The notes beneath the pieces are model-generated. The model made no database searches. It was not told the DNA's origin and saw nothing but the letters and a program-made list of their open reading frames with translations. A DNA stretch of 64,000 nucleotides, from NCBI GenBank assembly GCA_050187625.1, contig JBFWXH010000020.1, positions 15,355 to 79,354 of the forward strand, read 5' to 3'. A program made the translations under genes and the position numbers. Source of the stretch: Candidatus Binatia bacterium (GTDB taxonomy: Bacteria; Desulfobacterota; Binatia; Bin18). Below are positions 3,578 to 46,781 of this stretch, in pieces; within the stretch, counting starts at the first letter, position 1; every line of letters begins with the position of its first letter.

Positions 3578-5404
3578 ATGAGTCAAACAGTATCCCAGTC
3601 CCAACCAAACCGCATCCCAACGGCCGAAGAACTCGGCTTTGACCCCGGTGCCCTGCGTGAGAAGTACGCTGCCGAGCGCGCGAAGCGTCTGCGCGCCGAC
3701 GCAAACAGCCAATATCAGGAAATCACTGGCCAGTTCGCGCACTATAACGAGGATCCGTATGTCGAGCCGGGCTTCACCCGCCCTGCCCTGCTAGAAGAAG
3801 TCGATGTCTTGATCGTCGGCGGAGGCTTTGGGGGCATGTTAGCGGCAGTGCGCTTGCAAGAGGTCGGAATTACGAACTTTCGGATCGTCGAGAAAGCCGG
3901 GGATTTTGGTGGGACCTGGTACTGGAACCGCTATCCCGGCGCGCAGTGTGATATCGAAGGGTATCTCTACCTACCCCTGCTCGAAGAGACCGGGTACATT
4001 CCGAAGGAACGATATTCCTTCGCCCCCGAGATCTTTGCCCATGCGCAACGGATCGGCAAGCACTACAATTTGTACGAACGGGCATGCTTCCAGACGAAAA
4101 TCAACGAGGCCCGTTGGGATGAGGAAGCAGGACGCTGGACAGTCACCACCGATCGCGGTGATGAGTTCAAGGCGCGCTTTGTAATTATGTCGAGCGGGCC
4201 ACTGAACAAGCCCAAGTTACCGGGGATTCCAGGGATCGAGAAGTTCAAAGGACACACGTTCCACACGAGTCGCTGGGACTACGACTACACTGGTGGTGAT
4301 ACCACCGGGGGATTACATAAACTCCACGACAAACGCGTTGGCATTATTGGCACCGGAGCCACAGCGATCCAGTGCATCCCACATCTCGGTGAGCATGCAA
4401 AGCAGCTCTATGTCTTTCAACGCACGCCATCTTCGGTAGACGAGCGTAACAACACGCCCACCAACCCGGAATGGGCGAAGACGCTCAAGCCTGGATGGCA
4501 GTACTATCGTAACCGCAACTTCACCGCCCTCTTGGACGGGGTGCAGCTTGAAGGAGATGAAGTTCGTGACAAGTGGACCAGCCCGCTCAAGAAGCTCAGC
4601 GATTTGCTCAACAGTAAGAGCGGAGATATCTCCGCCACAGAAAAGGCAGCCTTGGCAGAAATCGCCGATTTTCAGAAGATGAACGAGATTCGCACGCGCG
4701 TGTCCTCGACGGTGAAGGACCCAGGGACAGCGGAAGCGCTCAAGCCCTGGTTCGGGCAATGGTGCAAGCGCCCAACCTTCAACGACGAGTATCTCCCCAC
4801 CTTCAACCGGCCTAACGTGAAGTTAGTGGACACGGAGGGGAAAGGGGTTAATCGGATAACCGAGCACGGCGTCGTGGTAAATGGGGTTGAGTACGAAGTG
4901 GACTGCCTGATCTTCGCGACGGGGTTCGAGGTAGGAACAGCGTACACGCGGCGAGCCGAGTTCGCGATGTACGGTCGTAACGGTGAGTCACTCGCCGACG
5001 CCTGGGCAAACGGGATGCGTACGTTCCACGGTTTTCTGAGTTGTGGGTTTCCCAACTGTTTCCACATGGGACTCACACAGACGGGGCTCACAGCGAACTT
5101 CACTTACATGCTCGACAATCAAGCCAAGCACGTGTCGCAGCTCATCACTCTGGTTAATAAGCGCAACGCGAAATCAATCGAGCCGACTCCTGAAGCTGAG
5201 GCTGAGTGGGTAAAGATCGTCAACGGACCGAACATGATGACGAAGTACCAAAATGCCTGTACGCCGGGGTACTACAACGGTGAGGGAACGAACGAGGGGC
5301 AGGGATTCCTCCAAGCCGTGTATCCTCAAGGCGCGCTGGCTTTTTACGACATGCTCGCGGAATGGCGCAAGCAGGGAGATTTTTCTGGACTTATTGTGAA
5401 GTAG
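3578..5404 (+). CDS. Type-I Baeyer-Villiger monooxygenase, long form (608 aa)
   Basis: AAGGAGGA RBS. VGGGFGG Rossmann motif, [20 protein letters not shown] fingerprint [12 protein letters not shown], second GTGATAIQ motif. Close paralogue of 12708-14537. Confidence 0.9.
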
Positions 5405-5487
5405 GCCGAGGATCAACTGCTGAAATCATGGCAGAATACTCGCACCGCGAAAGATACTCCTGGCGGATTCAAGCTCTCTCACTCCCC

Positions 5488-5509
5488 GCCCGGAGCTACA
5501 GCTCCGGGC
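5488..5509 (+). terminator. GC-rich perfect hairpin between two BVMO genes
   Basis: gcccggagc-taca-gctccgggc, 9-bp perfect stem. No downstream T-tract, so a terminator function is uncertain. Confidence 0.3.
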
Positions 5510-5549
5510 TTAGCGGACAAAGGTGAAACAACCACAGAGGAGGAACAAG

Positions 5550-7178
5550 ATGGCAAATGCGCAACCAACGACACTCGCAACTAGGACAGAGCCGATCGAA
5601 CAGTTTGACGCGATTGTGATCGGCGCTGGCGTGTCTGGCTTGTATCAACTGTACCGGCTACGGGAGCTGGGGCTCGCGGTGCGGTGCTTTGAAGATGGCA
5701 GTGAGGTGGGTGGCACCTGGTATTGGAACCGTTATCCAGGCTGCCGCTTCGATTCCGAGAGCGAAACCTATGGCTATTCGTGGTCGAAGGAACTGTTGCA
5801 GGAATGGGACTGGAAGGAACATTATTCCGGCCAGCCCGAGAACGAAAAATATCTCAATTATGTCGCGGATAAATTCGACTTGCGCAAAGACATCCAATTC
5901 AACTCGCACGTGACCTCAATCATCTACGACGAGCAGGCCAATCGCTGGGACATCCAATTGGAAAGCGGTCAGCGTGCCCGGGCACAGTTTCTCATCGCGG
6001 CAGTCGGCCTCTTGTCTGCTCGCTACACCCCGCCCTTTGAGGGAGTCGACAGCTTTCAGGGGGAGTCGTTTCATACTTCCCGATGGCCGAAGGAAAAGGT
6101 GGACTTCACCGGCAAGCGTGTCGCGGTTATCGGCACTGGCGCCACCGCAGTGCAGCTCATTCCGGAAATCGCCCCAGAAGTTGGGCATCTGACCGTCTTT
6201 CAACGTACCCCCAACTACTGCGCACCGTGCCGGAACTCTCTGGTAACCGAGGAGGAACAGCGCCAGTGGAAGGCTACCTACGACCAAATTCACCAACGGA
6301 TTCGCCAGACGACCGTCGGTCTTCCGCACGAGTTTGACCGGCGCAAGACGTTCGACGTTCCGCAGGAGGAGCGACATAAGTTCTATGAGGAGTTGTGGGC
6401 GAAGCCCGGCTTCGCGAAATGGTTGTCCAATTTTCACGATATTATGATCGACCCGGAGGCTAATGAGGACTTCGCCGAGTTCGTGCGCAACAAGATCCGC
6501 CAGCGCGTCAAAGATCCCGTGGTGGCGGAAAAGCTCGTGCCTAAGGACCACCCCTTCGGCTCAAAACGTATCCCCTTGGAGACCAACTATTACGAGGCGT
6601 ACAACCGGAACAATGTCTCGTTGGTGGACGTGCGTGAGGCTCCGATCGAGCGTATCACGCCCAGAGGTATCAAGACCACGGAGAAAGAGTACGAGTTTGA
6701 CGTGATTATCTACGCCACGGGGTTCGATGCCGTGACTGGTGCGTTGACACGCATCGACATTCGCGGCGAGGGAGGACAAACGCTCAAGGACAAGTGGGCC
6801 AATGGACCACGTAACTACCTGGGGTTGCAAAGTGCAGGTTTCCCCAATTTGTTCATTGCCATCAACGCCGCGTTCTGTAACTACACGGTCTGCGCTGAGT
6901 CGATCGTCGAATGGATTACCGATGCCATCCGCCATATGCGCGAGAAGGGCTTAAAAAGTATGGCCCCTAAGCAGCAGGCGGAAGACGCGTGGATCGAATA
7001 CATCAATAAGATTGCTGAAGGCTCGATTTTTACGAAAGCCAAGTCGGCGTGGTTTATGGGCACAAATATCCCAGGAAAACCCCGTGCCGTTCTCCTCAAT
7101 CCTCTCCCTGCCCCAGCTTATCGGTCCAAGTGTACCGAGGCTGCCGCTAAGGGCTATGCAGACTTTGTGCTACAGTAA
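5550..7178 (+). CDS. Type-I Baeyer-Villiger monooxygenase (cyclohexanone-monooxygenase-like, ~542 aa)
   Basis: ATG 5550 follows GAGGAGGA (ORF-track start 5523 is a GTG extension). [44 protein letters not shown]. Confidence 0.9.
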   Translation: MANAQPTTLATRTEPIEQFDAIVIGAGVSGLYQLYRLRELGLAVRCFEDGSEVGGTWYWNRYPGCRFDSESETYGYSWSKELLQEWDWKEHYSGQPENEKYLNYVADKFDLRKDIQFNSHVTSIIYDEQANRWDIQLESGQRARAQFLIAAVGLLSARYTPPFEGVDSFQGESFHTSRWPKEKVDFTGKRVAVIGTGATAVQLIPEIAPEVGHLTVFQRTPNYCAPCRNSLVTEEEQRQWKATYDQIHQRIRQTTVGLPHEFDRRKTFDVPQEERHKFYEELWAKPGFAKWLSNFHDIMIDPEANEDFAEFVRNKIRQRVKDPVVAEKLVPKDHPFGSKRIPLETNYYEAYNRNNVSLVDVREAPIERITPRGIKTTEKEYEFDVIIYATGFDAVTGALTRIDIRGEGGQTLKDKWANGPRNYLGLQSAGFPNLFIAINAAFCNYTVCAESIVEWITDAIRHMREKGLKSMAPKQQAEDAWIEYINKIAEGSIFTKAKSAWFMGTNIPGKPRAVLLNPLPAPAYRSKCTEAAAKGYADFVLQ

Positions 7179-7297: not shown

Positions 7298-8965
7298 ATG
7301 GCAAATGTTCAACAGTCCTCGACGGCCACCGCTCAGGGGCCGATCAGGCAATATGATGCAGTCATCATCGGGGCAGGCGTCGGTGGTCTCTACGCTTTGC
7401 ACCATCTACGCAAAATGGGATTCTCGGTACGGGTCTACGAAGGTGCTGCTGGCGTGGGCGGCACGTGGTGGTGGAATCGCTACCCCGGCGCGCGGGTCGA
7501 TGGTCCGGGGAGCCCTTTTTATTGTTACACGTTCTCCGAAGAGCTTGTGAAGGAATGGGACTGGACTGATACTCAGCCCGACCAGCCCTCGGTGCTGGCC
7601 TATCTCGAATATTTCACCGACCGGTTCGACCTGCGCCGCGACATCCAGCTCGAAACTTGGATACGCGATGCGCGCTACGACGAAGAGAAACAACGCTGGT
7701 TGGTAGAAACCAGCGCTAGCGAGCGTGTGAGCTGCCAGTTTCTGATCTGCGCCGTCGGTACCCTCTCGGCGGCGTACAAGCCCAACATTCCTGGAATCGA
7801 CGACTTTGCCGGCGAGTGCTACCATACTGGCCGCTGGCCGCATGAACCTGTCTCATTTGTCGGCAAACGCGTTGGCGTGATCGGCACCGGCTCCTCGGGC
7901 GTGCAAGCGATTCCCGAAATCGCTCGCGAGGCGGCACACCTAACGGTGTTCCAGCGTACGCCGCAGTACACCATCCCGGCCCGCAATCGTCCCCTTGATC
8001 CTGAGTTGGTACGGCAGGTCCGTGAAAACTGGCCCGCTATGCGCGCGAAGCTGAATGCAAACCCTGTGGGCATGCAGTTCGAGATGAGCAAGCGCTTGGC
8101 CTCTGAGGATACAGCCGAGCAGCGCCAGGCGCTCTACGAAGAGCTGTGGCAAAAGGGTGGGTTCCACCTCCTCTTTGGCAGCTATGCCGACATCATGACT
8201 GATAAAGAGGCCAACCGCACGATAGCCGACTTCGTGCGTGGCAAAATCCGCGAGATCGTGCGTGATCCCAAAACCGCCGCGAAGCTGATGCCCGACTACT
8301 ACCTGGGCACCAAGCGACAGCTCCTCGATAACGGCTACTACGAAACCTACAACCGTGACAATGTCACCCTTGTCGACCTGCGCGAAGATCCAATTCAAAA
8401 GATCACGCCTACGGGCATACGAACGGCAACGGGCGACCATCCGCTAGACATACTTGTACTGGCGACAGGCTTTGACGCCATGACCGGCGCACTGCTGCGC
8501 CTCAACCCGAAAGGGCGGGGCGGTGTCAGCCTGGCAGAGAAGTGGCGTGCGCATTTTAATACCTACCTCGGCATAACGATCGCCGACTTTCCCAACCTCT
8601 TTATGATCCATGGCCCGGGGTCACCGTCGGTGCTGTACAACATGCCCCTTGGCGCTGAGCACGAATCAACATGGATTGGTGACTGCGTGCGCTATCTGCG
8701 AGAACGCGGCCTGGGCGCGATCGAGCCGACTCCCGATGCGGAGAAAATCTGGGACCAAGAGGTCGCAGATCTCGCCAATGCGACGCTCTACCCGCTTACC
8801 GATTCCTGGTACATGGGGGCGAATATCCCAGGCAAGCCGCGCCAGTTCTGCGCGCATCTCGGAGGCCCCGCCTACTTCCAACGCATTGCTGACGTCGCCG
8901 CCAAGGGGTACGAGGGCTTTGTGTGCGAGAAGAAGCACCAAGAGGAGGCCATCGCCGCGCTCTGA
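7298..8965 (+). CDS. Type-I Baeyer-Villiger monooxygenase (~555 aa)
   Basis: ATG 7298 follows GAAGGAGGA (ORF-track start 7196 is an unlikely basic extension). IGAGVGG, VGGTWWWNRYPGARVD, FAGECYHTGRWP, IGTGSSGVQ. Confidence 0.9.
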   Translation: MANVQQSSTATAQGPIRQYDAVIIGAGVGGLYALHHLRKMGFSVRVYEGAAGVGGTWWWNRYPGARVDGPGSPFYCYTFSEELVKEWDWTDTQPDQPSVLAYLEYFTDRFDLRRDIQLETWIRDARYDEEKQRWLVETSASERVSCQFLICAVGTLSAAYKPNIPGIDDFAGECYHTGRWPHEPVSFVGKRVGVIGTGSSGVQAIPEIAREAAHLTVFQRTPQYTIPARNRPLDPELVRQVRENWPAMRAKLNANPVGMQFEMSKRLASEDTAEQRQALYEELWQKGGFHLLFGSYADIMTDKEANRTIADFVRGKIREIVRDPKTAAKLMPDYYLGTKRQLLDNGYYETYNRDNVTLVDLREDPIQKITPTGIRTATGDHPLDILVLATGFDAMTGALLRLNPKGRGGVSLAEKWRAHFNTYLGITIADFPNLFMIHGPGSPSVLYNMPLGAEHESTWIGDCVRYLRERGLGAIEPTPDAEKIWDQEVADLANATLYPLTDSWYMGANIPGKPRQFCAHLGGPAYFQRIADVAAKGYEGFVCEKKHQEEAIAAL

Positions 8966-9404: not shown

Positions 9405-9878
9405 ATGGCAGCAGTTAGCAAACTCCCTGTGAATCCAGTATCCGGCGTTCCTCCCGAAAGTATCACGTGGGTCCATCTCGAAGGGAGCCCGAGATTTGAC
9501 TATCCGATCGATTACTGGATCGCTATTCTGGGAGCACAACCAGAGAAGGGCAAGATTGACTTTCTCTCCAAGTGGGCGCCGAATTCGTACTGCCACTTTC
9601 ATCGACATCTCGGTGAGACCACCACGCTCGTGCTCGAAGGCGAACAGCACATCGTCGAAACCACACCCACGCAAACGATCCATAAAGTCCGCAGACCTGG
9701 ATTCTATGCCCGCACTCCTGGTGGCGACGTACACATGGAGTACGGAGGGCCAGAAGGGACAGTGGTTTTCTTCAGTTGTCAGGCAGACAACGGCCGTCTC
9801 TTCGAGGTTCTCGATAAAGACGAGAACGTTCTCGCTGTCGCGACTATCGAGAGTTTTCTCTCCGGAAAACTCGGCTAA
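9405..9878 (+). CDS. Small cupin-like protein (ChrR-type cupin pattern), paralogue 1 of 3
   Basis: 157 aa. HFHRHLGETTTLVLEGE and PGGDVHMEYGG resemble cupin motifs 1 and 2. Clear homology to 27282-27740 and 63722-64000 (LFEVLD, VRP-G-Y blocks). Confidence 0.6.
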   Translation: MAAVSKLPVNPVSGVPPESITWVHLEGSPRFDYPIDYWIAILGAQPEKGKIDFLSKWAPNSYCHFHRHLGETTTLVLEGEQHIVETTPTQTIHKVRRPGFYARTPGGDVHMEYGGPEGTVVFFSCQADNGRLFEVLDKDENVLAVATIESFLSGKLG

Positions 9879-9998: not shown

Positions 9999-10021
9999 CC
10001 CTTCTCCCGCCGGGAGAAGGG
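9999..10021. repeat. Hairpin of the CCCTTCTCCC-GCCG-GGGAGAAGGG type (related to the arms of R3)
   Basis: cccttctcccgccgggagaaggg, nested inside an outer gtacgaa/ttcgtac stem. Confidence 0.45.
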
Positions 10022-11288: not shown

Positions 11289-11306
11289 GCGGGGCGAGAC
11301 CGCCAC

Positions 11307-11431: not shown

Positions 11432-12223
11432 TCAGCACCCGACAAACCGCGCCGGGCGGTGCTCGGCGACGGCGCGTAACCCCTCTTTGTGATCAGCCGT
11501 CTGCCGTAGCCAGTGTTGTTCGCGATACTCGCGTGCCGTGGCTGCCTTGATCTCGGGCACGAGTCCTTCACGCATGGTCGCCCGCACCGATTGGACAGCG
11601 AGTGGCGCATTCGCAGCGATCTCCCGAGCCAGCTCTACGGCGGCGGTTCGCACGTTGGACTGGTCAGTAATCATGTCTCCCAAACCCCATGCCAAGGCTT
11701 CTTCGCCGCCAATCGAGCAGGCGGTAGAGCACAGCAGTGTTGCGCGTTGCCAACCAATCAGTCGCGGCAGAAGGTAGGTTATCCCAGAGCCTGGATGAAA
11801 ACCCAACTTGACAAAATTGGCCGCGAAACGCGTCTCCGGGCAGAGAACACGGAAGTCCGGAATAAGCGCCAAGCCCAAGCCTCCACCGATGGCGGCACCT
11901 TGAATTGCACCAACGACCGGTTTGCGGCAGGCGTGCATCCGCGCCATTTCGGCGTACAACGGATTGCCCGCCTCTGCAGCCCACGTCTGCTGTTCAGCCT
12001 CGCCTTGCAGATAGTGAAAATGCGCACCTGCGCAGAAATGTTTACCGACTGAGGCGAGCACGATGGTGCGGCACTCCACCGTGTTATCAAGTGTCTCGAA
12101 CGCAGTGACCAGGGCTTGAAGAAGATTAAGGTCAAGGACATTGTTAGGGGGCCGTTGGATTTCTACGGTTGCCACACAATTCTCAAGGGTGACCGCAACA
12201 TCTCCATACTGGGTTTGCATCAT
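11432..12223 (-). CDS. Enoyl-CoA hydratase/isomerase (crotonase) family protein
   Basis: Start MMQTQYGDVAV follows GGGAGGAG. CAGAHF... and GAAIGGGLGLAL are typical crotonase-fold segments. Confidence 0.85.
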   Translation of the reverse strand: MMQTQYGDVAVTLENCVATVEIQRPPNNVLDLNLLQALVTAFETLDNTVECRTIVLASVGKHFCAGAHFHYLQGEAEQQTWAAEAGNPLYAEMARMHACRKPVVGAIQGAAIGGGLGLALIPDFRVLCPETRFAANFVKLGFHPGSGITYLLPRLIGWQRATLLCSTACSIGGEEALAWGLGDMITDQSNVRTAAVELAREIAANAPLAVQSVRATMREGLVPEIKAATAREYREQHWLRQTADHKEGLRAVAEHRPARFVGC

Positions 12224-12707: not shown

Positions 12708-14537
12708 ATGAGTGAATCTCTCACCCCCGCCACCCCGCCCGGCATTCCGTCTATCGAAGAGTTAGGCTTTGACCCTGACGCCCTACGTGAGAAGTATGCC
12801 GCCGAACGAACCAAGCGTCTGCGAGCAGACGGGAATGAGCAGTATCAGGAAATTACTGGTCAGTTCGCACCGTATAATGTGGACCCCTATGTGGAACCGG
12901 GATTCACACGTCCGGCCCTGCAAGAAGAACTCGATGTCGTGATTATCGGTGGCGGTTTTGGTGGTCTGCTCGCAGCGGTGCGATTACAGGAGGTCGGCGT
13001 CACCAACATTCGCATCATTGAGAAAGCCGGAGATTTTGGCGGCACCTGGTACTGGAATCGCTATCCCGGCGCGCAGTGTGACGTAGAGTCCTATGTCTAT
13101 CTGCCGCTGTTAGAAGAGACCGGCTATATGCCTAAGGAGAAGTATTCGTTTGCGCCGGAGATCCTTGAACATGCGCGGCGGATTGGACGCCACTTCAAGC
13201 TATATGAGCGCACCTGCTTTCAGACGCAGATCAAAGAGGCACGCTGGGATGAGGGCGCGAAACGGTGGACGATCACGACGGATCGTGATGATGTCTTCCA
13301 CACGCGGTTTCTGATCATGTGCAGCGGGCCACTGAACCGACCCAAGTTGCCAGGCATCCCCGGCATCGAGAAATTCAAAGGCCATACCTTCCATACTAGT
13401 CGATGGGATTATCATTACACCGGGGGAGATAGCACTGGAAACTTACATAAACTCCACGACAAACGGGTCGGCATTATTGGCACCGGAGCTACCGCCATCC
13501 AGTGTGTGCCCCACCTTGGCCAACATGCCAAGCAACTATATGTTTTCCAGCGTACGCCCTCCTCGGTGGATAAGCGCGGCAACATGCCGACTGATCCTGA
13601 ATGGGTACAGACCCTCACGCCCGGTTGGCAAGCCTATCGCAATAATAACTTCTGTACCCTCATGGCGGGGCGACCCGTGGACGAAGATCTCGTCAACGAT
13701 GGCTGGACGAGTCTCTTCAAGAAACTGACCCGGCTGTTTTCGCGCCGCAATAACGCCGATCTCACCGAAGAAGAGCGGGCACAGCTCGCAGAGATCGCCG
13801 ATTTCCAGCAGATGAACGAGATTCGCGAGCGCATCTCCTCGATCGTCACCGACCCGCAAACCGCAGAGGCGCTCAAGCCGTGGTATGGGCAATGGTGCAA
13901 ACGGCCTACTTTCAATGATGAGTATCTGCCGACTTTCAACCGACCCAATGTCAAACTGGTCGACACCAAAGGCAAAGGCGTTGACCGGGTGACTGAGCAT
14001 GGTGTTGTTGTCGATGGAGTGGAGTACGAAGTTGATTGCTTGATCTTCGCCACTGGGTTTGAGGTTGGCACGGCCTACACCCGGCGAGCAGAGTTTGAGT
14101 TGTATGGGCGTGATGGAGTGCGACTCACCGAAGCCTGGGCCAACGGGATGCGGACTTACCACGGGTTCCTGAGTTGTGGATTTCCGAACTGCTTTCACAT
14201 GGGATTGACGCAAACGGGATTAGCACCGAACTTTACCTATCTGCTCGAAGGGCAATCACAACACATCGCGCAGCTCATTTCTGAGGTCAATGCTCACAAG
14301 GCGATGACCGTCGAACCGACGCCGGAGGCTGTGGCTGACTGGGTCGAGTTGATGACGAAACCGAATGCCTTGACCGAGTACCAAAATGCCTGCACGCCAG
14401 GGTACTACAACGGCGAGGGGCAAAACACAGGGGTCGGATTTGTGGGAACACAGTATCCTCAGGGCGCGCCGTCGTTTTTCAAGATGCTTGCCCGCTGGCG
14501 CGAGCAAGGGGATCTGTCCGGGCTCGTCGTGAAGTAG
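12708..14537 (+). CDS. Type-I Baeyer-Villiger monooxygenase, long form (609 aa)
   Basis: ATG 12708 follows [52 protein letters not shown]. Roughly 80% aa identity by eye to 3578-5404. Confidence 0.9.
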
Positions 14538-32177: not shown

Positions 32178-32303
32178 AATTCCCTCTCCCGCCGGGAGAG
32201 GGCGAGGGTGAGGGGATCTCACAAAGAATACTCTTTTTTCCCCTCATCCTGACCCCCTTCGACAAAACTCAGGATAGGCTTCTCCCGGACGGGAGAAGGA
32301 ACC
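32178..32303 (+). repeat. R3 MITE-like element (~125 bp), forward copy
   Basis: aattccctctcccgccgggagaggg...cccctcatcct...cttctcccggacgggagaaggaacc. The reverse complement of 55469-55573 aligns along its length apart from one ~25-bp indel. Confidence 0.6.
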
Positions 32304-36922: not shown

Positions 36923-36930
36923 ACGGCACT

Positions 36931-37005
36931 GTCATTGCGAGCGCAGCGAAGCAATCTCATTTTCATACAGAGATTGCTTCGTCGCCTGTGGCTCCTCGCA
37001 ATGAC
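36931..37005. repeat. R2 palindromic element (full copy)
   Basis: gtcattgcgagcgcagcgaagcaatctc-attttcataca-gagattgcttcgtcgcctgtggctcctcgcaatgac. Confidence 0.65.
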
Positions 37006-37041
37006 GCCCTTGGCCTGTGGTGCCTTTTTCGGAGGAGACCA

Positions 37042-37434
37042 ATGAGCACCGCTGACAACAAAAAACTCATTCAGGACGTCTTTGCGGCCTGGGCCAACGG
37101 CGACGGCATGGCCTTCTTTAACTTGTTAGCCGACACCGCTTCGTGGACGGTGATGGGAAATTGTCCAATTTCCGGAACCTATGTGGGCCGACAACGGTTA
37201 ATCGAAGAGGCGCTCAAACCCCAACGTGAGAAGCTGGCCGGTCCACCAACACCAACAGTGATCAATCTGATTGCCGAAGGAGACACCGTCGTCATTCAGT
37301 GGGTCGGTAAAGGAACCACCAAAACCGGCCAACCGTATAACAATAGCTACTGTTATGTCGTGCAGATCGAAGCCGGACGCATTGTCCGTGGAACCGCCTA
37401 TCTTGATACCGAATTGGTGCGATCGATTTGGTAA
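37042..37434 (+). CDS. SnoaL-like / NTF2-fold (ketosteroid-isomerase-like) protein
   Basis: ATG 37042 follows GGAGGAGA. NKKLIQDVFAAWANGDGMAFFNLLADTASWTVMG is a typical SnoaL_2 start. The ORF-track extension from 36988 lies inside the R2 repeat. Confidence 0.7.
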   Translation: MSTADNKKLIQDVFAAWANGDGMAFFNLLADTASWTVMGNCPISGTYVGRQRLIEEALKPQREKLAGPPTPTVINLIAEGDTVVIQWVGKGTTKTGQPYNNSYCYVVQIEAGRIVRGTAYLDTELVRSIW

Positions 37435-37545
37435 TCCGTAAAGACCTGGAGATTCTTCAAACTAATATGGGGTGACATTCCTAGACGATGGGACTATAGG
37501 AGGGTATTATTAATAGTTTGAACCACTCACCAGAAAGGAAGCAAC

Positions 37546-38676
37546 ATGAAAATAGGTATCCAAAACGTTTTCCCCGCTCACAAGGATTACAGCGATCGCG
37601 ACATGTACAAGCATGAGACGCGCTTGCTGATCGAAGCCGAAGGCATGGGGTTCGACATCATCTGGCCCGTCGAGCATCACTTCTTCGATTACTCGATGTG
37701 TCCTGACAACATGCAGTATCTCAGCTATATCGCCGCCCGCACCGAGAAAATGGAACTTGGCACCGGGGCTATCATCCTGCCTTGGAACAATCCGATGCGA
37801 GTAGTCGAAAAGATGGTGCTGCTCGATCACCTGTCTGACGGACGCGCAGTGCTCGGCCTTGGACGCGGGTTGTCACGGCGGGAATACGCCGGGTTCGGTG
37901 TCGATATGACCGAAGCCCGCGAGCGCTTCAACGAAGCTGCCGCCATTGTCGTGCAAGGGTTAGAGAGCGGTATCGTCGAAGCCAATACCAAGTATTATCA
38001 ACAATCGCGTATCGAAGTGCGTCCGCGCCCGTTCAAGAGCTTCAAGGGCCGTCGCTACATGGTGTGTATGTCGCCGGAGTCCTTCTCAGTCGCCGCGTCG
38101 CTGGGGCTTGGGGCAATGATGTTCTCACAGACCGCGTGGGAGAAAATGGCTCCGCAGCTGGAAGCGTATCGTGCAGAGTACCGCCAGCAGAACAATGGCG
38201 AGGAAGCACCACCGATCAGCATTGTGGATTTTATCTCGTGCTTTCCCACGCGCAAGAAAGCCGAAGAGGTCGCGCTACGCGGGATCACCGGCTATTACTG
38301 GAGTTTAATGGAGCATTACCGTATGGATGATGCGGCCAACTTCGCCACTACGGGTTCTTCATATCAGCACTACGCCAAAGCCGCCGAGCAGATCACCGCG
38401 GCTGGGCACGATGCGGTCATCGAAGAATTCATCGCCTCGAATCTCTGGGGCACGCCCGATATGATCCTCGCGACGCTACGTCATCGCCGTGAGGTGATTG
38501 GCGATTTCGAGGTCAACGGCGCGTTCAGCTATGACAGCACTCCGTACACCGATGTCGAGGAGAACATGCGCCTCTTCGCTAAGGAGATCGGACCAGAGGT
38601 CAAGAGCTGGCAACCGAAGGCTCCACGTCAGCCGGTTGATGTGCGCCCTGCTGCTGCATCCGCGACAGCGAAATAG
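37546..38676 (+). CDS. LLM-class flavin monooxygenase, LuxA/alkanal-monooxygenase-like (376 aa)
   Basis: GFDIIWPVEHHFFDYSMCPDNMQYLSYIAARTEKMELGTGAIILPW. Paralogue of 58370-59488. Confidence 0.8.
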   Translation: MKIGIQNVFPAHKDYSDRDMYKHETRLLIEAEGMGFDIIWPVEHHFFDYSMCPDNMQYLSYIAARTEKMELGTGAIILPWNNPMRVVEKMVLLDHLSDGRAVLGLGRGLSRREYAGFGVDMTEARERFNEAAAIVVQGLESGIVEANTKYYQQSRIEVRPRPFKSFKGRRYMVCMSPESFSVAASLGLGAMMFSQTAWEKMAPQLEAYRAEYRQQNNGEEAPPISIVDFISCFPTRKKAEEVALRGITGYYWSLMEHYRMDDAANFATTGSSYQHYAKAAEQITAAGHDAVIEEFIASNLWGTPDMILATLRHRREVIGDFEVNGAFSYDSTPYTDVEENMRLFAKEIGPEVKSWQPKAPRQPVDVRPAAASATAK

Positions 38677-38771
38677 TCAGGCTCTCCTGTCCAAGCCGGT
38701 CGTCCGAATTGCCTTGTGCATTCTCCGGGCGACCGCACGATAACCCGATTTACATACCGTAATGGAGGATC

Positions 38772-39575
38772 ATGGATCTCAAACTTGCAGGCAAGTCTGT
38801 GCTCGTCACTGGCGCGAGCAAAGGCATAGGCCAAGCCATCGCCGAAGCATTCGCGGCTGAAGGCGCTAGGGTGGCGCTGGCGGCCCGCTCGGCGCAAGAT
38901 CTCGAGCGTTTGGCTGCCGCAATTAACAAGACCGGTGGCGAAGCCATTGCATGCCCGACCGATCTGACGAAACCAGCGGAAGTCCAAGCCCTCGTTGACT
39001 CTGTCATCTCCCGCTTTGGCTCCATTCACGTGCTGGTGAATAATGCCGGTGGAGTGGTTGACGGGTTTCCCAAGTTCGAGGAACTCTCCGACGAGGAATG
39101 GTTCACCACCTTTGACGTGAACCTCTTTTCGACTGTTCGCCTGACGCGCGCCGTGCTCCCGCACATGCGGCAGCAACAATGGGGCCGCATTATCAACGTG
39201 TCCAGTGAGTTGGCGTTGCAGCCGGATGGCGACATGCCACATTATACTGCCGCCAAAGCCGCTATTCTTAATCTGACAAAGAATTTGTCAAAGGCGTATG
39301 CGCTCGATGGGATTTTGATTAACACGGTATCGCCAGGCATGATTGCCACTCCCGCAGTGGAGGAGATGGCCATAGAAACAGGCAAGCGCATGGGGATTTC
39401 CTCGACAGAAGTGCTGGCACGCTTTATTGCCAAACGCCGTCCCTCTCTTGCTCTTCGTCGCCCCGGCCAGTCAGAAGAAATTGCTGCGGTCGTCCTTTTC
39501 CTGGCCTCTGCAGCTGCGTCGTATATGACCGGCACAAATATCCGCGTTGATGGTGGGTCGGTGGCAGGGATATGA
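38772..39575 (+). CDS. SDR-family oxidoreductase (FabG-like)
   Basis: TGASKGIG cofactor motif, NNAG, catalytic YTAAK. Confidence 0.9.
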   Translation: MDLKLAGKSVLVTGASKGIGQAIAEAFAAEGARVALAARSAQDLERLAAAINKTGGEAIACPTDLTKPAEVQALVDSVISRFGSIHVLVNNAGGVVDGFPKFEELSDEEWFTTFDVNLFSTVRLTRAVLPHMRQQQWGRIINVSSELALQPDGDMPHYTAAKAAILNLTKNLSKAYALDGILINTVSPGMIATPAVEEMAIETGKRMGISSTEVLARFIAKRRPSLALRRPGQSEEIAAVVLFLASAAASYMTGTNIRVDGGSVAGI

Positions 39576-41104: not shown

Positions 41105-41520
41105 AAATCCCACCGGGATTTCGTTCTCTAGCCCAGGGTTGGCACAACCCTGGGGAATCAAATCGCGATGAATTCCCAACCCCACAGGGGTTGCGTCAAC
41201 ATTGAACCGCCTCACGGCCACAACCCCGTTGGGGTTGATGACTACGATCTTACGGCCCCAGGGTAGCTCGTCCCTCGCAACCCTGGGCTTTGCACCATAA
41301 TCCCTTCGGGATTGCGCAAATGAAGATCAAAGATCAGCTTTGTGTTACAATCCCTTCGAGATTGGACAAATGAAAACCCTGACGTTATTTAGCAATCCCA
41401 TGGGGATTGAATGCACAAAAATCCCAACGGGATTCCATCCTCCAGCCCCAGGTTGCCACAACGCGGCAACCTGGGGAGAACGAGCCAATATCCCTATACC
41501 AGCAACCCCAAGGGGGTTGC
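41105..41520. repeat. REP hairpin array upstream of the RAYT gene (three hairpin classes)
   Basis: Class A is CAACCCC-NNN-GGGGTTG. Class B is AATCCC-NNN-GGGATT. Class C is CCCAGGGTTGC-N-GCAACCCTGGG. At least 10 hairpins with irregular spacing. Confidence 0.8.
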
Positions 41521-41538
41521 ACCAACCCACCTGACGCC

Positions 41539-41994
41539 ATGCCCCAATCCCTCTCCGCTATTTATATTCACCTGACCTTTTCAACAAAAGAGCGAAGGCC
41601 GTTGCTCCGCGATAAACCCCTCCGTGACAAACTCCATGCGCAACTGGGCTGCATTAGCAAAACTCTTGGCTGTCCGCCGCTGATCGTGGGCGGCGTGGAA
41701 GACCATGTACATCTCCTGTGTCGCTTCGGTCGTACGATTACGCAGGCGGAATGGGTGAAGGAGTTGAAGCGCGTGTCTAACGGCTGGCTTAAAGAGCAAG
41801 GAAGTGGCTACGCCGATTTCGCCTGGCAGGGCGGCTACGCCGATTTCTCCGTTAGTCAGTCTAATCTTGCACGGGTGAAGCAATACATCGCGAGCCAGGA
41901 GGAACATCATCACAAACTGACGTTTCAGGACGAATTGCGCACGTTGTTGCAGAGACATGGAATCGAATTTGACGAACGCTATGTTTGGGATTGA
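41539..41994 (+). mobile_element. REP-associated tyrosine transposase (RAYT; IS200/IS605 TnpA-like Y1 HUH enzyme)
   Basis: Start MPQSLSAIYIHLTFSTKERRP. HUH motif VEDHVHLL, Tyr region WQGGYADFSVS, C-terminal YIASQEEHH. Confidence 0.85.
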
Positions 41995-41998
41995 GGCG

Positions 41999-42088
41999 CA
42001 ACCCCATTGGGGTTGTATTCCCCCTCACCAATTACCCAGGGTTGCTCTTGCAACCCTGGGCTGCATTTCGCAATCCCTTTGGGATTGC
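41999..42088. repeat. REP hairpins downstream of the RAYT gene
   Basis: caaccccattggggttg, cccagggttgctcttgcaaccctggg, gcaatccctttgggattgc. Confidence 0.8.
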
Positions 42089-42192
42089 TGCCCAACCCAA
42101 CAATAGAGGGCACAACCCAGTCTTCTCTTGTGCGTAACGCGCTTCTGTGCCACCATCGTCAATCGCATTGACTATAGAGAACAGGCGACACC

Positions 42193-42534
42193 ATGACAGC
42201 TTTCGCCATTCGCACCGATCAGAAAGAGACAGGCAAACGTCAGTTCCGCGCAATCGCTGGAGACCGCCAAAGTCTCGGAAGAACTATGGGGGAAGCGCTC
42301 GATGCATTAACGGTGGAATGGGGAGACGATGTTCAGGAAACGGTGGTGTTGATTCAACGGTTTCAGCCGGATCAATACTTTACTCAGGCGCTGTATGATC
42401 GGATGCAGGCGTTGCTCGCCCGTCGTTCCACTTTGACGCCGAAAGAGCGCACAGAACTCGAAGCTCTCATTGATGCTGAAGTAGACGCAATTGTCGCGCG
42501 CACGGAAACGCGCGTGCGTCCACAGCAGCCGTGA
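42193..42534 (+). CDS. Small hypothetical protein (113 aa), 4-nt overlap with HNH remnant
   Basis: Plausible protein composition. Its stop TGA overlaps the GTG of the next ORF (GTGA). Confidence 0.45.
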   Translation: MTAFAIRTDQKETGKRQFRAIAGDRQSLGRTMGEALDALTVEWGDDVQETVVLIQRFQPDQYFTQALYDRMQALLARRSTLTPKERTELEALIDAEVDAIVARTETRVRPQQP

Positions 42535-42600
42535 ATGCGCGATATCCTGCGATTGCTGAACGTGCAACCTATAGGTGCGAGTATTGTCTCCACCTGAAAG
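42531..42600 (+). pseudogene. 5' remnant of an HNH endonuclease gene
   Basis: RYPAIAERATYRCEYC is the usual N-terminal first Cys pair of small HNH endonucleases. Similarity ends at the inverted repeat at 42585. Confidence 0.35.
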
Positions 42601-42630
42601 TGTTTTCAATTTTCCTTTCAGGTGGAGACA
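42585..42630. repeat. Perfect 16-bp inverted repeat with 14-nt loop
   Basis: tgtctccacctgaaag-tgttttcaattttc-ctttcaggtggagaca. Confidence 0.85.
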
Positions 42631-42688
42631 ACTCGGAGTATTCCCTTAACGCCTCTGTTGACGAAAGAACTGAAAACCGGGACACGTC

Positions 42689-44691
42689 ATGCCTAACTTC
42701 ATCTCCGAGGACCAGATTGAGCGGGCGCTGGTGCAAAAGCTGCAACAGCTGCATAGTTTCGACACGCTCGACTGCTATACAGAAGACCCGGAGGATTTAC
42801 ACGATGGCTCGGGCCGCACCAACAAACGCGACGTTATCCTCGTGGATCGGGTCAAGGAAGCCGCTATCCGCCTGAACCCGACCATTCCGCCAAAAATCAT
42901 TGATGACGCGATGGAAAAGCTGCTCGACCGGCGTCAGGCCATGTCGCTCGTCGCCGCCAATCATGAGATGTACAACTTGCTGCGCGACGGTATTCCGATA
43001 GAGTTCGACAACGCGCAAGGCCAGAAGCAGCAAGACCGAGTGAGACTGATTTACTTCAACGAACCGAAAGAGAACCGGTATTTGGCCGTTACGCAACTGT
43101 GGATCAAAGGCGAACGCGGCTTCCGCCGTCCCGACGTGTTGCTGTATGTCAACGGCATTCCCCTGGTCTTCATCGAACTGAAAAACTCGAACGTCAAGCT
43201 CAAGACCGCGTTTACTACAAAGACACTCAGAAAATCATCGCTCAGAACCATCAGTTCATCGGCGTGAATCACGCCTACGAGACGTTCCTCAAACGCGAGG
43301 AGTTGCAAGGTAAGCTCGGCGTGTTCTGGCACACACAGGGTTCGGGCAAGAGTTTTTCGATGATTTTCTACGTGCGCAAGATTTTCCGTAAACAGGTGGG
43401 AAACTTTACCTTCGTCGTGGTCACCGACCGTGACGATTTAGACGGGCAGATTTATCGCAACTTCCTCCATACCGGCACGGTCACCAAAGCTGAAGCCGCC
43501 CAGCCGAAAAATAGCGAGGAGATGCGCAAGTTCCTCGGGCAAAACAAACGGCTGGTTTTTACCTTGATTCACAAATTTCGCTGGCCCAAAGGCAAGACCT
43601 ATCCTGTGCTCTCGCCTCGCAACGATATCATCGTGATTGTGGACGAGGCCCACCGCACGCAATACAAGATCTCGCGGAGAACATGCGGGCTGGACTGAAG
43701 AACGCCCAGTATCTCGCTTTTACCGGTACGCCGTTGCGGGCGAGACCGCAAGACGAACCAGTGGTTCGGCGATTACGTTTCTGAGTACAACTTCCAGCAA
43801 TCCATGGACGACGGCGCCACCGTGCTGCTGTTCTACAAGAAACGTGTCCCACAAGTGCTAATTCAGAACGAAAATCTCAGCGAAGAGTTCTATGAGATTC
43901 TGGAGGACGAGAACCTTGATGACGCCCAGCAAGCAAAGCTGGAGAACCGCTTCGCGGCGGAAGTGGAAGTGGTCAAACGTGATGACCGCCTGGAACGGAT
44001 CGCTCGAGACATCGTCTATCACTTTCCCCGGCGCGGCTACCTCGGCAAAGGCATGGTCGTCTCGCTCGACAAATTCACTGCTGTGAAGATGTATGACAAA
44101 GTCCAGCGCCTATGGAAGGAGGAGATTAAAAACCTGCGTGGACGGATCGCTCGCTCCGTGGATGACCTAGAAAAAAGACGCTTGCAAAAGCGTCTGGACT
44201 ACATGCGGTCGGTGGAGATGGCGGTCATCGTAAGCGAGGATGCTGACGAGGAAAAAAAGTTCACCAAACAGCAGCTGACTATCAAACCACACCGCGAACG
44301 GATGAACACCGTGGACGAGCATGGGCACGATGTAGAATACAACTTCAAAGACCCTGCACATCCGCTGCAACTAGTTTTTGTCTGCGCGATGTGGTTGACG
44401 GGTTTCGACGCACCCACTGTATCAACTTTGTATCTCGACAAGCCGATGAAGGATCACACGTTGATGCAGACTATTGCCCGCGCCAACCGTGTCACCTCCT
44501 GGAAGATCAACGGCGTCGAGAAGAAGAACGGTGAGATCGTCGATTACTACAACGTGTTCCGCAGTATGCGGAAGGCGCTACGGGATTATGCGCAGGGCCA
44601 GGAAGGACAGGAGCAGCCGCCAGTGCAAGAGAAGAAAGTGCTGTTCACGCTGCTTGACGACGCCAACCAGGGATTGAAATGGGCGGCGTGA
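42689..44691 (+). pseudogene. hsdR: Decayed type-I restriction enzyme R subunit
   Basis: The N-domain (MPNFISEDQIERALV...RPDVLLYVNGIPLVFIELK), helicase motif I (HTQGSGKS), DEAH box (VDEAHRTQY), LAENMRAGLKNAQYLAFTGTPL and DDGATVLLFY lie in three different frames. About 100 aa are missing after IELK. No hsdM or hsdS nearby. Confidence 0.8.
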
Positions 44692-44852
44692 GTGAAGAAG
44701 CAAAAAAGAGAAAACAAACTCTCAGTCACGATCATTGCTTCCATACGCAGCCTCTACTCAGCTTCTGCTCTAATTCTTGACTGCACAAGGTGCCTGCGAT
44801 AGCGTGTCCTTAATTTCATGTCAGCAGTATTTGCGACATAGGGAGGTAGATT

Positions 44853-46781
44853 ATGCATGAACAACACAACGCGAATGGCCAAGGGGAAGCACAACGCTTC
44901 GCCGAAGCTGTCGCGATTGCCAACATTCCAACACTCCTGATGGTGTTGGTGCAGTTGACCGGCGATCTTCGCTGGCTAGAGGAGCCCTATCGACCTCACC
45001 GCGCCCGCGGGATGAATGATAACGATACCGGCGGACTGCCAGAGCCAATTCAGGCCGAGATCCGCAAAGCGGCACTGGAGGCTATCTTGGCCTGGCGGGC
45101 GGGCCATCCAGTAGCTATTCCCGAACCATCTCCCGAATTGCGCTGTCAAATGTTGGCCTGTGCCGTAGCCGAAAAGGTGCCCCTCGAATACGATCCGCTC
45201 ATTGCTGCAGATCTTCCTTTGGCACAGCACGACATTGTCGAGAAATTGCCGGTCCCAGAGGGATTCAAAGCACTGATCATTGGCGCTGGCGTCTCGGGCT
45301 TATGCGCGGCAATCAAGTTCCAGCAAGCGGGTATCCCTTTTACTATCCTGGAAAAAAGCACCCAGTTAGGAGGTATCTGGCGCGATAACCGCTATCCTGG
45401 CGCTGGGGTCGACACTCCGAACCATCTCTACTCATACACGTTCGCTCCGTACGACTGGTCGATGTATTTCGCGCTCCGCGACGAACTGCATGCCTATCTG
45501 GAGCACGTTGCCGATACGTTCAACCTGCGCCCGCACATCCGCTTCGAGACCGAGGTGAAGTCGGCTGACTATGACGAAAAGACGCAGCAGTGGAAGGTAA
45601 CGGTTCGGCAGGCCAACGGTTCACAAGAGACACTCACCAGCAACGTCCTCATCAGCGCAGTCGGGATCTTTAATCCCATCAAGATGCCGGACATCAAAGG
45701 GCTGGAGAGCTTTGCCGGTCCGTGTTTTCACACGGCAGAGTGGCCCGATGATGTTGATCTTACGGGGAAGCGGGTGGCCATGATCGGCAATGGTGCCAGC
45801 GCCATGCAGACGGGGCCGGCGATTCAACACAAGGTGAAATCACTCACGATCTTCCAGAAGTCGCCGCATTGGGTAGCGCCCAATGAACAGTTTGGCAAGC
45901 CGATCCCTGATGCTCTGCGTTTCCTACTGCGCGAAGTGCCGCTCTATCGCGCGTGGTATCGCATACGCCTGGGCTGGACGTTTGGCGACCGTATTCACTC
46001 CACTCTACAGAAGGACCCCACCTGGGAATACGCCGATCGCTCGCTCAACAAAATGAACGACTCGCATCGGGCCTACTTCACGCAGTATATCGTTTCTGAG
46101 ATTGGCGACAGAACCGACCTGCTGGAGAAAGTCGTGCCGACTTACCCACCCTTCGGCAAGCGCATGTTGATGGATAACGGCTGGTACCGCATGTTGCGTA
46201 ACGAGAAGGTGCAACTTGTTTCTGATCCCATCGTCGAGATTAAGCCAGATCGCGTCGTTACCAAAGATGGTTCGGAATATGAAGCCGACGTGTTGGTGGT
46301 AGCCACCGGGTTTGACGTGTTGCGCTTTCTCACCTCCTTTGAGGCACGGGGCCGCTCGGGACGCAGTTTGCGCGAGGTGTGGGAGGATGACAATGCCAAG
46401 GCGTACATCGGGACGGTTATCCCCGACTTTCCCAACTTCTTCTGCTTGTACGGGCCAAACTTACAGCCAGGCCACGGCGGCAGTCTGATTTTCGTCGTCG
46501 AAATGCAGATGCGCTATATCATGGACGTGTTGAAGAAGATGTTGACACAAAACCTTGGTGCGGTTGAATGTCGTCAGGACGTGCACGACGCGTACAACGA
46601 AGGCGTGGATCAAGCACATGCCAACATGGTCTGGACCCACCCTGGGATGGAAACCTACTATCGCAATGACCGCGGGCGAATTGTCGTGAATTCTCCGTAT
46701 CGCAACACCACCTTCTACAATATGACGCGTGAAGCCAAGCTCACTGACTTTACTGTCGAGCCTCGCCACTCGTCGTCTTGA
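44853..46781 (+). CDS. Type-I Baeyer-Villiger monooxygenase with ~140-aa N-terminal extension (HAPMO-like, 642 aa)
   Basis: GGGAGG RBS. IGAGVSG at residues 144-149, LGGIWRDNRYPGAGVD, FAGPCFHTAEWPDD, IGNGASAMQ. Confidence 0.85.
   Translation: MHEQHNANGQGEAQRFAEAVAIANIPTLLMVLVQLTGDLRWLEEPYRPHRARGMNDNDTGGLPEPIQAEIRKAALEAILAWRAGHPVAIPEPSPELRCQMLACAVAEKVPLEYDPLIAADLPLAQHDIVEKLPVPEGFKALIIGAGVSGLCAAIKFQQAGIPFTILEKSTQLGGIWRDNRYPGAGVDTPNHLYSYTFAPYDWSMYFALRDELHAYLEHVADTFNLRPHIRFETEVKSADYDEKTQQWKVTVRQANGSQETLTSNVLISAVGIFNPIKMPDIKGLESFAGPCFHTAEWPDDVDLTGKRVAMIGNGASAMQTGPAIQHKVKSLTIFQKSPHWVAPNEQFGKPIPDALRFLLREVPLYRAWYRIRLGWTFGDRIHSTLQKDPTWEYADRSLNKMNDSHRAYFTQYIVSEIGDRTDLLEKVVPTYPPFGKRMLMDNGWYRMLRNEKVQLVSDPIVEIKPDRVVTKDGSEYEADVLVVATGFDVLRFLTSFEARGRSGRSLREVWEDDNAKAYIGTVIPDFPNFFCLYGPNLQPGHGGSLIFVVEMQMRYIMDVLKKMLTQNLGAVECRQDVHDAYNEGVDQAHANMVWTHPGMETYYRNDRGRIVVNSPYRNTTFYNMTREAKLTDFTVEPRHSSS

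Follow-up and report, generated by a model that had tools for sequence, protein, structure and literature searches.

Type I Baeyer-Villiger monooxygenases (BVMOs) are single-chain enzymes that use FAD and NADPH: NADPH reduces the FAD, O2 gives a C4a-peroxyflavin, and the latter attacks a carbonyl to form a Criegee intermediate that rearranges to an ester or a lactone. They are sought-after biocatalysts whose physiological substrates are mostly unknown. Microbial genomes are reported to encode about one BVMO each, Rhodococcus RHA1 with more than 20 being a peculiar exception (PMC3427485). In SAR202 (Chloroflexota), expanded families of monooxygenases, CaiB/BaiF proteins, short-chain dehydrogenases/reductases (SDRs) and enoyl-CoA hydratases have been connected with recalcitrant alicyclic dissolved organic matter, through a proposed route leading from ketone to lactone, acid and CoA (PMC5395668; PMC6946804). 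The one genomic survey of Binatota in the library that we searched stresses methylotrophy and alkane hydroxylases and mentions neither BVMOs nor ketones (PMC8262859); no paper of that library brings Binatota together with Baeyer-Villiger chemistry, and we came across none describing BVMOs from Binatota or clusters of several BVMO genes. Here we describe seven type I BVMO genes located within 43 kb of contig JBFWXH010000020.1 from an uncultured soil-dwelling Candidatus Binatia bacterium. The 64,000-nt stretch analysed is called the window, and all coordinates are positions in it. We estimate at about 70% the probability that this window belongs to an extensive catabolic island with seven functional type I BVMOs from three long-separated clades.

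The seven genes all lie on the plus strand. In order, they encode BVMO1 (3578..5404, 608 aa), an N-extended enzyme of the PockeMO/PtlE/CPDMO type; BVMO2 (5550..7178, 542 aa), of the canonical PAMO/OTEMO type; BVMO3 (7298..8965, 555 aa), of the canonical PAMO/CHMO/STMO type; BVMO4 (12708..14537, 609 aa), of the PockeMO/PtlE type; BVMO5 (25587..27224, 545 aa) and BVMO6 (30456..32090, 544 aa), both of the PAMO/OTEMO type; and BVMO7 (44853..46781, 642 aa), probably of the HAPMO type, with a 135-aa N-terminal extension. Each open reading frame (ORF) runs from ATG to stop without interruption, with coordinates matching the gene calls of a public metagenome-assembled genome (MAG). A tblastn search with all seven as queries recovered exactly seven BVMO genes within the window, summing to 12.2 kb, or 28% of the 43.2-kb interval. 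The count of seven given by the initial annotation, which had been made from the sequence alone, is thus borne out by the intact ORFs, the tblastn search and the Pfam and solved-structure matches.

ORFs and proteins were profiled against Pfam, NCBIfam and PADLOC, and all seven BVMOs had Pfam FMO-like and Pyr_redox_3 matches. Each protein carries two Rossmann dinucleotide motifs (GxGxxG/A), which flank the fingerprint in the right order and align with those of PAMO. The short fingerprint FxGxxxHxxxW(P/D) is strictly conserved in 6/7 proteins, BVMO5 having Y for F at position 1 while keeping His, Trp and Pro; the same 12 residues are found in BVMO1 and BVMO4, and the motif reads FQGESFHTSRWP in BVMO2, FAGECYHTGRWP in BVMO3, YTGEWCHTGLWP in BVMO5, FKGQSFHTSRWP in BVMO6 and FAGPCFHTAEWP in BVMO7. 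A regular expression for the long fingerprint [A/G]GxWxxxx[F/Y]P[G/M]xxxD, introduced by Riebel et al. (2012) to tell BVMOs from flavin-containing monooxygenases (PMC3427485), was matched by all seven, the match including the GG(T/I)W..NRYPG block. The four motifs first noticed in these proteins therefore occur in the same order in each, and the strings quoted for them were all present. To compare catalytic residues, we took the PAMO sequence from the PDB alignment with BVMO5 and aligned it to all seven proteins. The fingerprint residues align with those of PAMO, and the residues corresponding to D66, H173 and K336/R337 are kept throughout, together with the ATG motif. The equivalent of PAMO R217 (NADPH 2'-phosphate) is R in six proteins and K in BVMO7, in which the FQRTP motif, kept in the others, is replaced by FQKSP. 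Five proteins (BVMO1, 2, 3, 5, and 7) were compared directly with the solved BVMOs PAMO, OTEMO, STMO, CHMO and PockeMO, giving full-length matches with E-values from 9e-67 to 8.8e-187, far beyond a chance resemblance; identity to PAMO and OTEMO across all seven is only 30-52%. Judged by these alignments, all seven are type I BVMO homologues with intact catalytic residues; they extend BVMO clades that were already known, and the mechanism expected of them is ordinary.

The three length classes proposed earlier were recovered, except that the middle one spans 542-555 aa and not 544-555 aa, and in sequence comparisons they correspond to three recognised BVMO clades formed by BVMO1/4, BVMO2/3/5/6 and BVMO7. 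BVMO1 and BVMO4 are 75% identical at the amino acid level and share an N-terminal extension of ~55-60 aa relative to the 542-555-aa paralogues. The best solved match of BVMO1 was PockeMO (5mq6, 455 bits vs 281 for PAMO). The PtlE/PenE/PntE equivalog model NF045818 was matched over its full length with 749.7 bits by BVMO1 and 749.6 bits by BVMO4, the other five proteins scoring 117-264 bits. All these scores being under the 1100-bit cutoff of the model, we rejected BVMO1 and BVMO4 as pentalenolactone D or neopentalenolactone D synthases; their sequence affinities place them in a clade of enzymes acting on bulky polycyclic ketones.

Within the second clade, BVMO2, BVMO5 and BVMO6 show 65-77% mutual amino acid identity and BVMO3 is 46-50% identical to those three. 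With PAMO and OTEMO, the four proteins have identities of 39-52% (48-52% for PAMO), BVMO2/5/6 being about equally distant from the two (~49-52% to PAMO, ~48-49% to OTEMO; 48-49% to both for BVMO2 and 49-51% for BVMO6). Bit scores were likewise similar for BVMO2 (PAMO 577, OTEMO 574) and BVMO5 (PAMO 625, OTEMO 606), and BVMO3 scored 582 with PAMO, 549 with TmCHMO and 419 with OTEMO. In a neighbour-joining (NJ) tree with 200 bootstraps, in which PAMO and OTEMO were the only reference enzymes, BVMO2/5/6 grouped with OTEMO in 140/200 replicates (70%), and these three proteins carry OTEMO-like strings such as PGCRxD and KDPVVAEKL(I/V)PKDHPFG. BVMO7 is the most isolated member, with 26-32% amino acid identity to the other six and scores of ~200-229 bits, in two stretches, with all the solved enzymes. 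Over 100 proteins of ~640 aa are related to it at 73-89% identity, many of them automatically named 4-hydroxyacetophenone monooxygenase by JGI.

The paralogues of the window, which are 26-77% identical to each other, are more distant from one another than from their orthologues elsewhere. The other loci compared are cited by labels such as L009 and L060 (L060 being ERZ25067114 contig_2). Orthologues of BVMO1 are 88-92% identical (L009, L010, L060), that of BVMO4 89% (L032), that of BVMO2 86% (L060), and those of BVMO7 up to 89%; BVMO3 orthologues reach 88% in L032 and 77-88% across at least 10 metagenome loci, and relatives of BVMO6 are found at 76% in L013, L054 and L060. In the NJ tree, 200/200 bootstraps joined BVMO1 to its orthologues, and 199/200 did so for BVMO4. 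Paralogue identities of 26-77%, set against 86-92% between orthologues, and these bootstraps indicate that the duplications predate the divergence of these genomes, in agreement with the old age first attributed to the paralogues. The closest pair, BVMO2/BVMO6 (77% amino acid identity), has a nucleotide identity of 76.0% globally and 79-79.7% locally over ~1,400 nt, which brackets the earlier figure of about 78%.

With seven BVMO genes in 43 kb, the density far exceeds published norms and that of any listed megaplasmid. Among 72,556 plasmids, 322 had a BVMO match, at 540 places in total, and the most found among 40 listed BVMO-positive plasmids was six per 0.58-1.36 Mb Rhodococcus megaplasmid. 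The locus had been considered exceptional, and this holds for its density; it is not a one-off, since related Binatia carry other dense arrays. In L060, a BVMO7 orthologue, a BVMO6-like gene, an esterase, a glutathione S-transferase (GST), a BVMO1 orthologue, an SDR, a second GST and a BVMO2 orthologue follow each other, with four BVMOs in 11.9 kb. L032 holds three in tandem (BVMO1-like, BVMO3 and BVMO4 orthologues), L013/L054 share one arrangement with two BVMOs and an orthologue of the CoA-transferase gene CoAT1 described below, and the order in L010 is cupin, BVMO1 orthologue, CoAT1, luciferase-like monooxygenase (LLM) 5. BVMO3 orthologues are solitary in L033, L035 and L042. The closest loci belong to Binatia or "Deltaproteobacteria" MAGs, including closed Binatia chromosomes. 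We rejected a conserved seven-gene synteny, the gene order of the window being found in none of the 27 loci anchored on CoAT1 and the 20 anchored on BVMO3. The dense and permuted arrays of related Binatia suggest that this lineage is characterised by reshuffled groups of BVMO genes; the window holds the largest array among the loci compared, extreme but recurrent in Binatia. Such recurring arrays suggest an overlooked capacity of Binatia to degrade subterminal-alkane, alicyclic or terpenoid ketones. The value of the locus lies both in this catabolic trait, which had not been reported for the uncultured phylum, and in enzyme mining, with seven intact, divergent BVMOs and many orthologues for ancestral or consensus design.

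We infer the catabolic role, the substrate classes and the order of the downstream steps from neighbouring genes and synteny. BVMOs would convert ketones to esters or lactones, which would be opened by hydrolases, the candidates being an HSL-type esterase, a CehA/McbA metallohydrolase, Amidohydro_2 proteins and an LEH-like protein. An SDR would then oxidise the resulting hydroxy acid to an acid or diacid, fused family III CoA-transferases of the dicarboxylate type would load the acids onto CoA, and enoyl-CoA hydratase, acyl-CoA dehydrogenase and thiolases would degrade the CoA esters. The paralogues most likely serve different ketones, with BVMO1/4 predicted to act on bulky polycyclic or terpenoid ketones, BVMO2/3/5/6 on smaller cyclic, aryl-alkyl or aliphatic ones and BVMO7 on aryl ketones. 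The modules being separable in relatives, several substrate-specific modules are favoured over one obligate seven-step pathway, and synteny indicates that these modules are most likely only loosely linked and have been shuffled independently of each other. The "ketone toolbox" that the initial annotation envisaged for a diverse substrate pool is likewise something that we infer from gene context.

Upstream of BVMO1 lies a gene for an HpaB-family two-component flavin hydroxylase (2004..3440, plus strand; Pfam HpaB_N 1e-96, HpaB 9e-53) that scored 435 bits with NCBIfam HpaB-1 (cutoff 480). An enoyl-CoA hydratase/isomerase gene (11432..12223, minus strand; ECH_1 1.3e-49) is divergent from BVMO4. 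The HSL-type alpha/beta esterase (14679..15632, plus strand; Abhydrolase_3 7e-66; 253 bits with NCBIfam LipP1, below cutoff) starts 141 bp after BVMO4. It is followed by the CehA/McbA metallohydrolase (16210..17937, plus strand, 575 aa), which has no Pfam domain, is identified by NCBIfam NF038032 (179.7 bits, cutoff 80), has the same name at NCBI and is part of the BVMO4-esterase module; its sequence makes it a candidate second ester or lactone hydrolase. The view that a single BVMO has an adjacent esterase is correct as far as it goes, BVMO4 being the only one, but it understates the hydrolases of the window, which also include the CehA/McbA protein, two Amidohydro_2 proteins and LEH/SnoaL-like proteins.

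The five LLM genes and the HpaB gene noted at the outset were all retrieved with Pfam (five Bac_luciferase matches, one HpaB gene). LLM1, a SnoaL-like gene, LLM2 and an SDR gene occupy 35585..39575 on the plus strand, after the second CoA-transferase gene and a VOC gene (Bac_luciferase twice, adh_short, SnoaL_2); the SDR (38772-39575, plus strand, adh_short) is the only one in the window. Further downstream (50902..63712, mixed strands) are genes for a thiolase, an LEH-like protein, LLM3, LLM4, a VOC protein, a TonB-dependent receptor, LLM5, an acyl-CoA dehydrogenase and an SCP2-type thiolase, according to Pfam matches; an OB/DUF35 partner accompanies the SCP2-type thiolase. LLM3, of the NtaA/DmoA family, is the only LLM that passed a family cutoff (TIGR03860, 478 bits, cutoff 280). 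LLM4 (54430-55416) had F420-dependent LLM oxidoreductase subfamilies as best match, with 193 bits, just under cutoff; it looks F420-type and so may be a reductase or dehydrogenase and not a monooxygenase. The gene paired with the SCP2-type thiolase encodes an OB_ChsH2_C (DUF35-type) protein (62128-62553, minus strand), a pairing known from steroid side-chain and benzylsuccinate pathways. After the acyl-CoA dehydrogenase gene we also observed a secreted-looking beta-propeller protein (60948-62093, plus strand) with a weak ScyD/ScyE-family match. Overall, the beta-oxidation genes of the window comprise those for the enoyl-CoA hydratase, the acyl-CoA dehydrogenase, the thiolase and the SCP2-type thiolase with its partner. 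Candidates for C-C cleavage are a BKACE protein and a thiamine diphosphate enzyme resembling 2-hydroxyacyl-CoA lyase and acetolactate synthase; five glyoxalase-superfamily (VOC) members, a TonB-dependent receptor, two periplasmic binding proteins and an EamA transporter were also found. The catabolic enrichment extends at least 6-10 kb past each end of the window.

Several points weigh against this catabolic reading. Neither a flavin reductase to serve the LLMs and HpaB nor a clear pathway regulator was found in the window (a MarR-type gene lies upstream in L001), and the gaps of 35-460 bp between genes on the same strand make operon structure uncertain. BVMO clades are promiscuous, which weakens substrate guesses based on clade; the chemistry of type I BVMOs extends to oxidations at sulfur and nitrogen; and the tree contained only two reference enzymes. 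We nevertheless consider other explanations to be much less probable. It is extremely unlikely that the array arose artificially, through similar genes being joined into a chimera or otherwise mis-assembled. In the public MAG built from short reads, GCA_050250595.1, the assembly does split the region into three contigs (JBFWOI010000108.1, JBFWOI010000038.1 and JBFWOI010000131.1), with breaks at 9654-9663 and near 55.5 kb, and a Logan contig begins at 44817. However, JBFWOI010000108.1 holds BVMO1-3 and JBFWOI010000038.1 alone holds BVMO4-7, and where these two contigs overlap by 10 bp (9654-9663) an intact 157-aa cupin ORF crosses the junction. A second Binatia MAG encodes identical proteins, including all seven BVMOs (MGE0822721, 722, 723, 728, 731, 738, 740, 741, 752), with accessions running consecutively from MGE0822721 to MGE0822752 and a longest contig of 95,817 bp reported for each protein. 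Both MAGs bear the NCBI label Candidatus Binatia bacterium. The paralogues, with 76% nucleotide identity for the closest pair, are moreover too divergent to have been collapsed or mis-joined by an assembler.

The two biological alternatives concern the purpose of the enzymes. All seven could attack the same complex polycyclic compound one after another (a steroid, a hopanoid or a polycyclic terpenoid, for instance), opening successive rings, as the position of BVMO1/4 in the polycyclic-ketone clade of PockeMO and PtlE might suggest, together with the SCP2-type thiolase and its OB_ChsH2_C partner, the acyl-CoA dehydrogenase and the enoyl-CoA hydratase, gene types also present in steroid side-chain degradation. 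Such a single dedicated pathway appears improbable, since the gene order is not kept as a unit, orthologues being single or otherwise combined in relatives, and no KstD, KshA or Hsa-type core gene reached threshold, the HsaA and KstD models scoring far below their cutoffs. A role in tailoring a secondary metabolite, like that of PtlE, PenE and PntE in pentalenolactone biosynthesis, has in its favour that the PtlE equivalog is the best NCBIfam match of all seven proteins, with up to 750 bits. We regard it as very unlikely: every score is below the 1100-bit cutoff, no polyketide synthase, nonribosomal peptide synthetase, terpene synthase or P450 was detected among the window ORFs, and the surrounding genes encode beta-oxidation enzymes, CoA-transferases, hydrolases and a receptor for uptake.

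A further question, compatible with the catabolic reading, is whether some BVMOs act on CoA-activated substrates. The CoA-transferase and cupin genes reported to adjoin several BVMOs were found as described, with CoA_transf_3 proteins next to BVMO5 and BVMO6 and cupins after BVMO3 and BVMO5. CoAT1 (27818..30244, plus strand, 808 aa) consists of two fused family III CoA-transferase domains (Pfam CoA_transf_3 in two stretches), and CoAT2 (32512..34944, plus strand, 810 aa) is a second fused enzyme of this family (CoA_transf_3, NCBIfam). In both, the N-terminal half corresponds to 9fn0_A and the C-terminal half to 9fn0_B, the subunits of a heteromeric benzylsuccinate CoA-transferase, the C-terminal half being nearest to succinate-glutarate and succinyl-CoA:mesaconate transferase models of NCBIfam. 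CoAT2 orthologues are 65-80% identical in Binatia genomes, and the fused architecture recurs in 27 loci from Binatia and a few Myxococcota MAGs.

In analogy to OTEMO, the CoA-transferases could make keto-acid CoA thioesters, BVMO5/6 and perhaps BVMO2 would oxygenate these CoA esters, and the lactone-CoA would open spontaneously or through a cupin or VOC protein. We consider this possible but less likely than not. It is in line with the gene order BVMO5, cupin, CoAT1, BVMO6, CoAT2, with gaps of 57-421 bp, and with the position of a BVMO directly upstream of the CoAT1 orthologue in L010 and in L013/L054; in L009 the distance is 2.4 kb, with a SnoaL-like gene in between. It also agrees with the OTEMO-like strings of BVMO2/5/6 and with their grouping with OTEMO in 70% of the bootstraps. 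However, these three proteins are no closer to OTEMO (48-49%) than to PAMO (49-52%), about half of the CoAT1-orthologue loci with enough flank have no BVMO, and in the camphor pathway the OTEMO substrate is made by an ATP-dependent ligase and not by a family III transferase. The nearest relatives of the CoA-transferases (benzylsuccinate, succinate-glutarate, SUGCT, mesaconate) are all dicarboxylate:succinyl-CoA enzymes, which fits the activation of ring-opened diacids, as of adipate in cyclohexanone degradation. The earlier suggestion of CoA-activated substrates, as known for OTEMO, retains some support, and activation of diacid products may fit these sequences at least as well. A broader version, in which Binatia have evolved a system for carboxylic acids of alicyclic and terpenoid origin that is modular and prone to shuffling, with type I BVMOs functionally coupled to single-chain, BbsEF-like fused family III CoA-transferases and sometimes to a small ChrR-type cupin, and ring cleavage taking place on or into CoA thioesters, is speculative and in our opinion rather unlikely; if true, it would generalise the single OTEMO precedent to a toolkit and make Binatia a major degrader of recalcitrant alicyclic soil carbon.

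The cupins are small ChrR-type proteins. CupinA (9405..9878, plus strand, 157 aa; Cupin_7 1.4e-7, 31.7 bits, cutoff 27) follows BVMO3, and cupinB (27282..27740, plus strand, 152 aa; weak Cupin_7 match, 2.9e-4) lies between BVMO5 and CoAT1. With a third paralogue of ~150 aa at ~63731-64000 (minus strand) they are 38-47% identical (38% between cupinA and cupinB). The cupinB family has 792 homologues, mostly from Binatia, one of them automatically named 2,4'-dihydroxyacetophenone dioxygenase. A cupinB homologue adjoins a BVMO in L010, L013 and L054, whereas it has no such neighbour in L052, L053, L056 and L057; a BVMO being adjacent in only one of the three cupinB-homologue contexts looked up on long contigs, we rejected the cupin as an obligate BVMO partner.

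The array is interrupted before BVMO7. The interruption (41106..44691) contains a RAYT-like IS200/Y1 transposase gene (41539-41994, plus strand, Pfam Y1_Tnp), a small orphan ORF and, immediately upstream of BVMO7, a pseudogene of the type I restriction subunit gene hsdR (42689-44691, plus strand) in three frames. PADLOC recognised REase_I fragments of the pseudogene at profile positions 5-156, 251-413 and 475-701 of 1029, the C-terminal third being gone, and no hsdM or hsdS was found near it. The L060 orthologue of BVMO7 lies 52 bp from another BVMO, and direct BVMO neighbours are present in L060/L062, which suggests that the membership of BVMO7 in this neighbourhood is ancestral and not accidental. 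Twelve hairpins of the repetitive extragenic palindromic (REP) type flank the transposase gene on both sides (41106-42086) and occur nowhere else in the window; they are of three types, AATCCC-N3-GGGATT (five), AACCCC-N3-GGGGTT (four) and CCAGGGTTG..CAACCCTGG (three). Y1 transposase homologues also adjoin CoAT1 orthologues in L006 and L007. REP hairpins were considered as a cause of module shuffling and rejected, those of the RAYT gene being confined to it and showing no link to breakpoints.

Elsewhere in the window, a perfect 21-nt palindrome, CCYTCTCCC-N3-GGGAGARGG, was observed at four intergenic sites (10000-10020, 32182-32202, 55473-55493 and 55550-55570), with a degenerate copy at 12437-12457, that is, five matches vs 0.01 expected by chance. 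This palindrome could represent a REP-like element, or else a hairpin that acts as a terminator or stabiliser. Two genes, unk315 (10341-11288, plus strand, 315 aa) and unk352 (39785-40843, minus strand, 352 aa), had no Pfam, NCBIfam or PADLOC match and occupy the two stretches of lowest GC content (0.49-0.50 vs ~0.55 elsewhere in the window); they could have been inserted at the borders of modules, as foreign or defence-related DNA.

Compared with characterised enzymes, BVMO2/3/5/6 resemble PAMO of Thermobifida fusca and OTEMO of the Pseudomonas putida camphor pathway in their end-to-end alignment, motifs, catalytic Asp/His/Arg and length of ~545 aa, but identities are only 39-52%, BVMO5 has Y for the first fingerprint F, and orthology to either enzyme cannot be claimed. 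BVMO1/4 share the N-terminal extension of the group of PockeMO (5mq6), CPDMO, PtlE, PenE and PntE, enzymes for bulky polycyclic or macrocyclic ketones, and match PockeMO (455 bits for BVMO1) and the full-length PtlE model (750 bits); unlike the PtlE group, they remain below the 1100 cutoff, lack the context of a pentalenolactone cluster and come from a host of a different phylum. BVMO7, with its 642 aa and ~135-aa extension before the FAD motif, recalls HAPMO of Pseudomonas fluorescens ACB, which is ~640 aa long with an N-terminal extension. The HAPMO name of its relatives is automatic (JGI), and, in contrast to the HAPMO system, no hydroquinone-pathway genes (hapCDEF-like) are present near BVMO7.

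At the level of gene organisation, BVMO4 followed on the same strand by an alpha/beta esterase reproduces the arrangement of the chnB/chnC, mekA/mekB and acmA/acmB clusters. Those clusters have one BVMO each, whereas six other BVMOs without an adjacent alpha/beta esterase are present here, and of the dehydrogenase and regulator expected by analogy to them the window offers one SDR (38772-39575) and no clear regulator. The BVMO genes of Rhodococcus jostii RHA1 are spread over its 9.7-Mb genome, and the listed megaplasmids carry at most 6 per 0.58-1.36 Mb; here, 43 kb from an uncultured phylum of the Gram-negative type hold 7. The likeness to RHA1 lies in the many divergent type I BVMO paralogues of one catabolically versatile organism (PMC3427485). 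As in SAR202, flavin monooxygenases are expanded together with CaiB/BaiF CoA-transferases, SDRs and enoyl-CoA hydratases. The SAR202 enzymes are luciferase-like (type II), whereas type I enzymes dominate here and are physically clustered, and habitat and phylum differ. The case of Binatia is therefore comparable in its logic to the SAR202 hypothesis, but with type I enzymes as its base.

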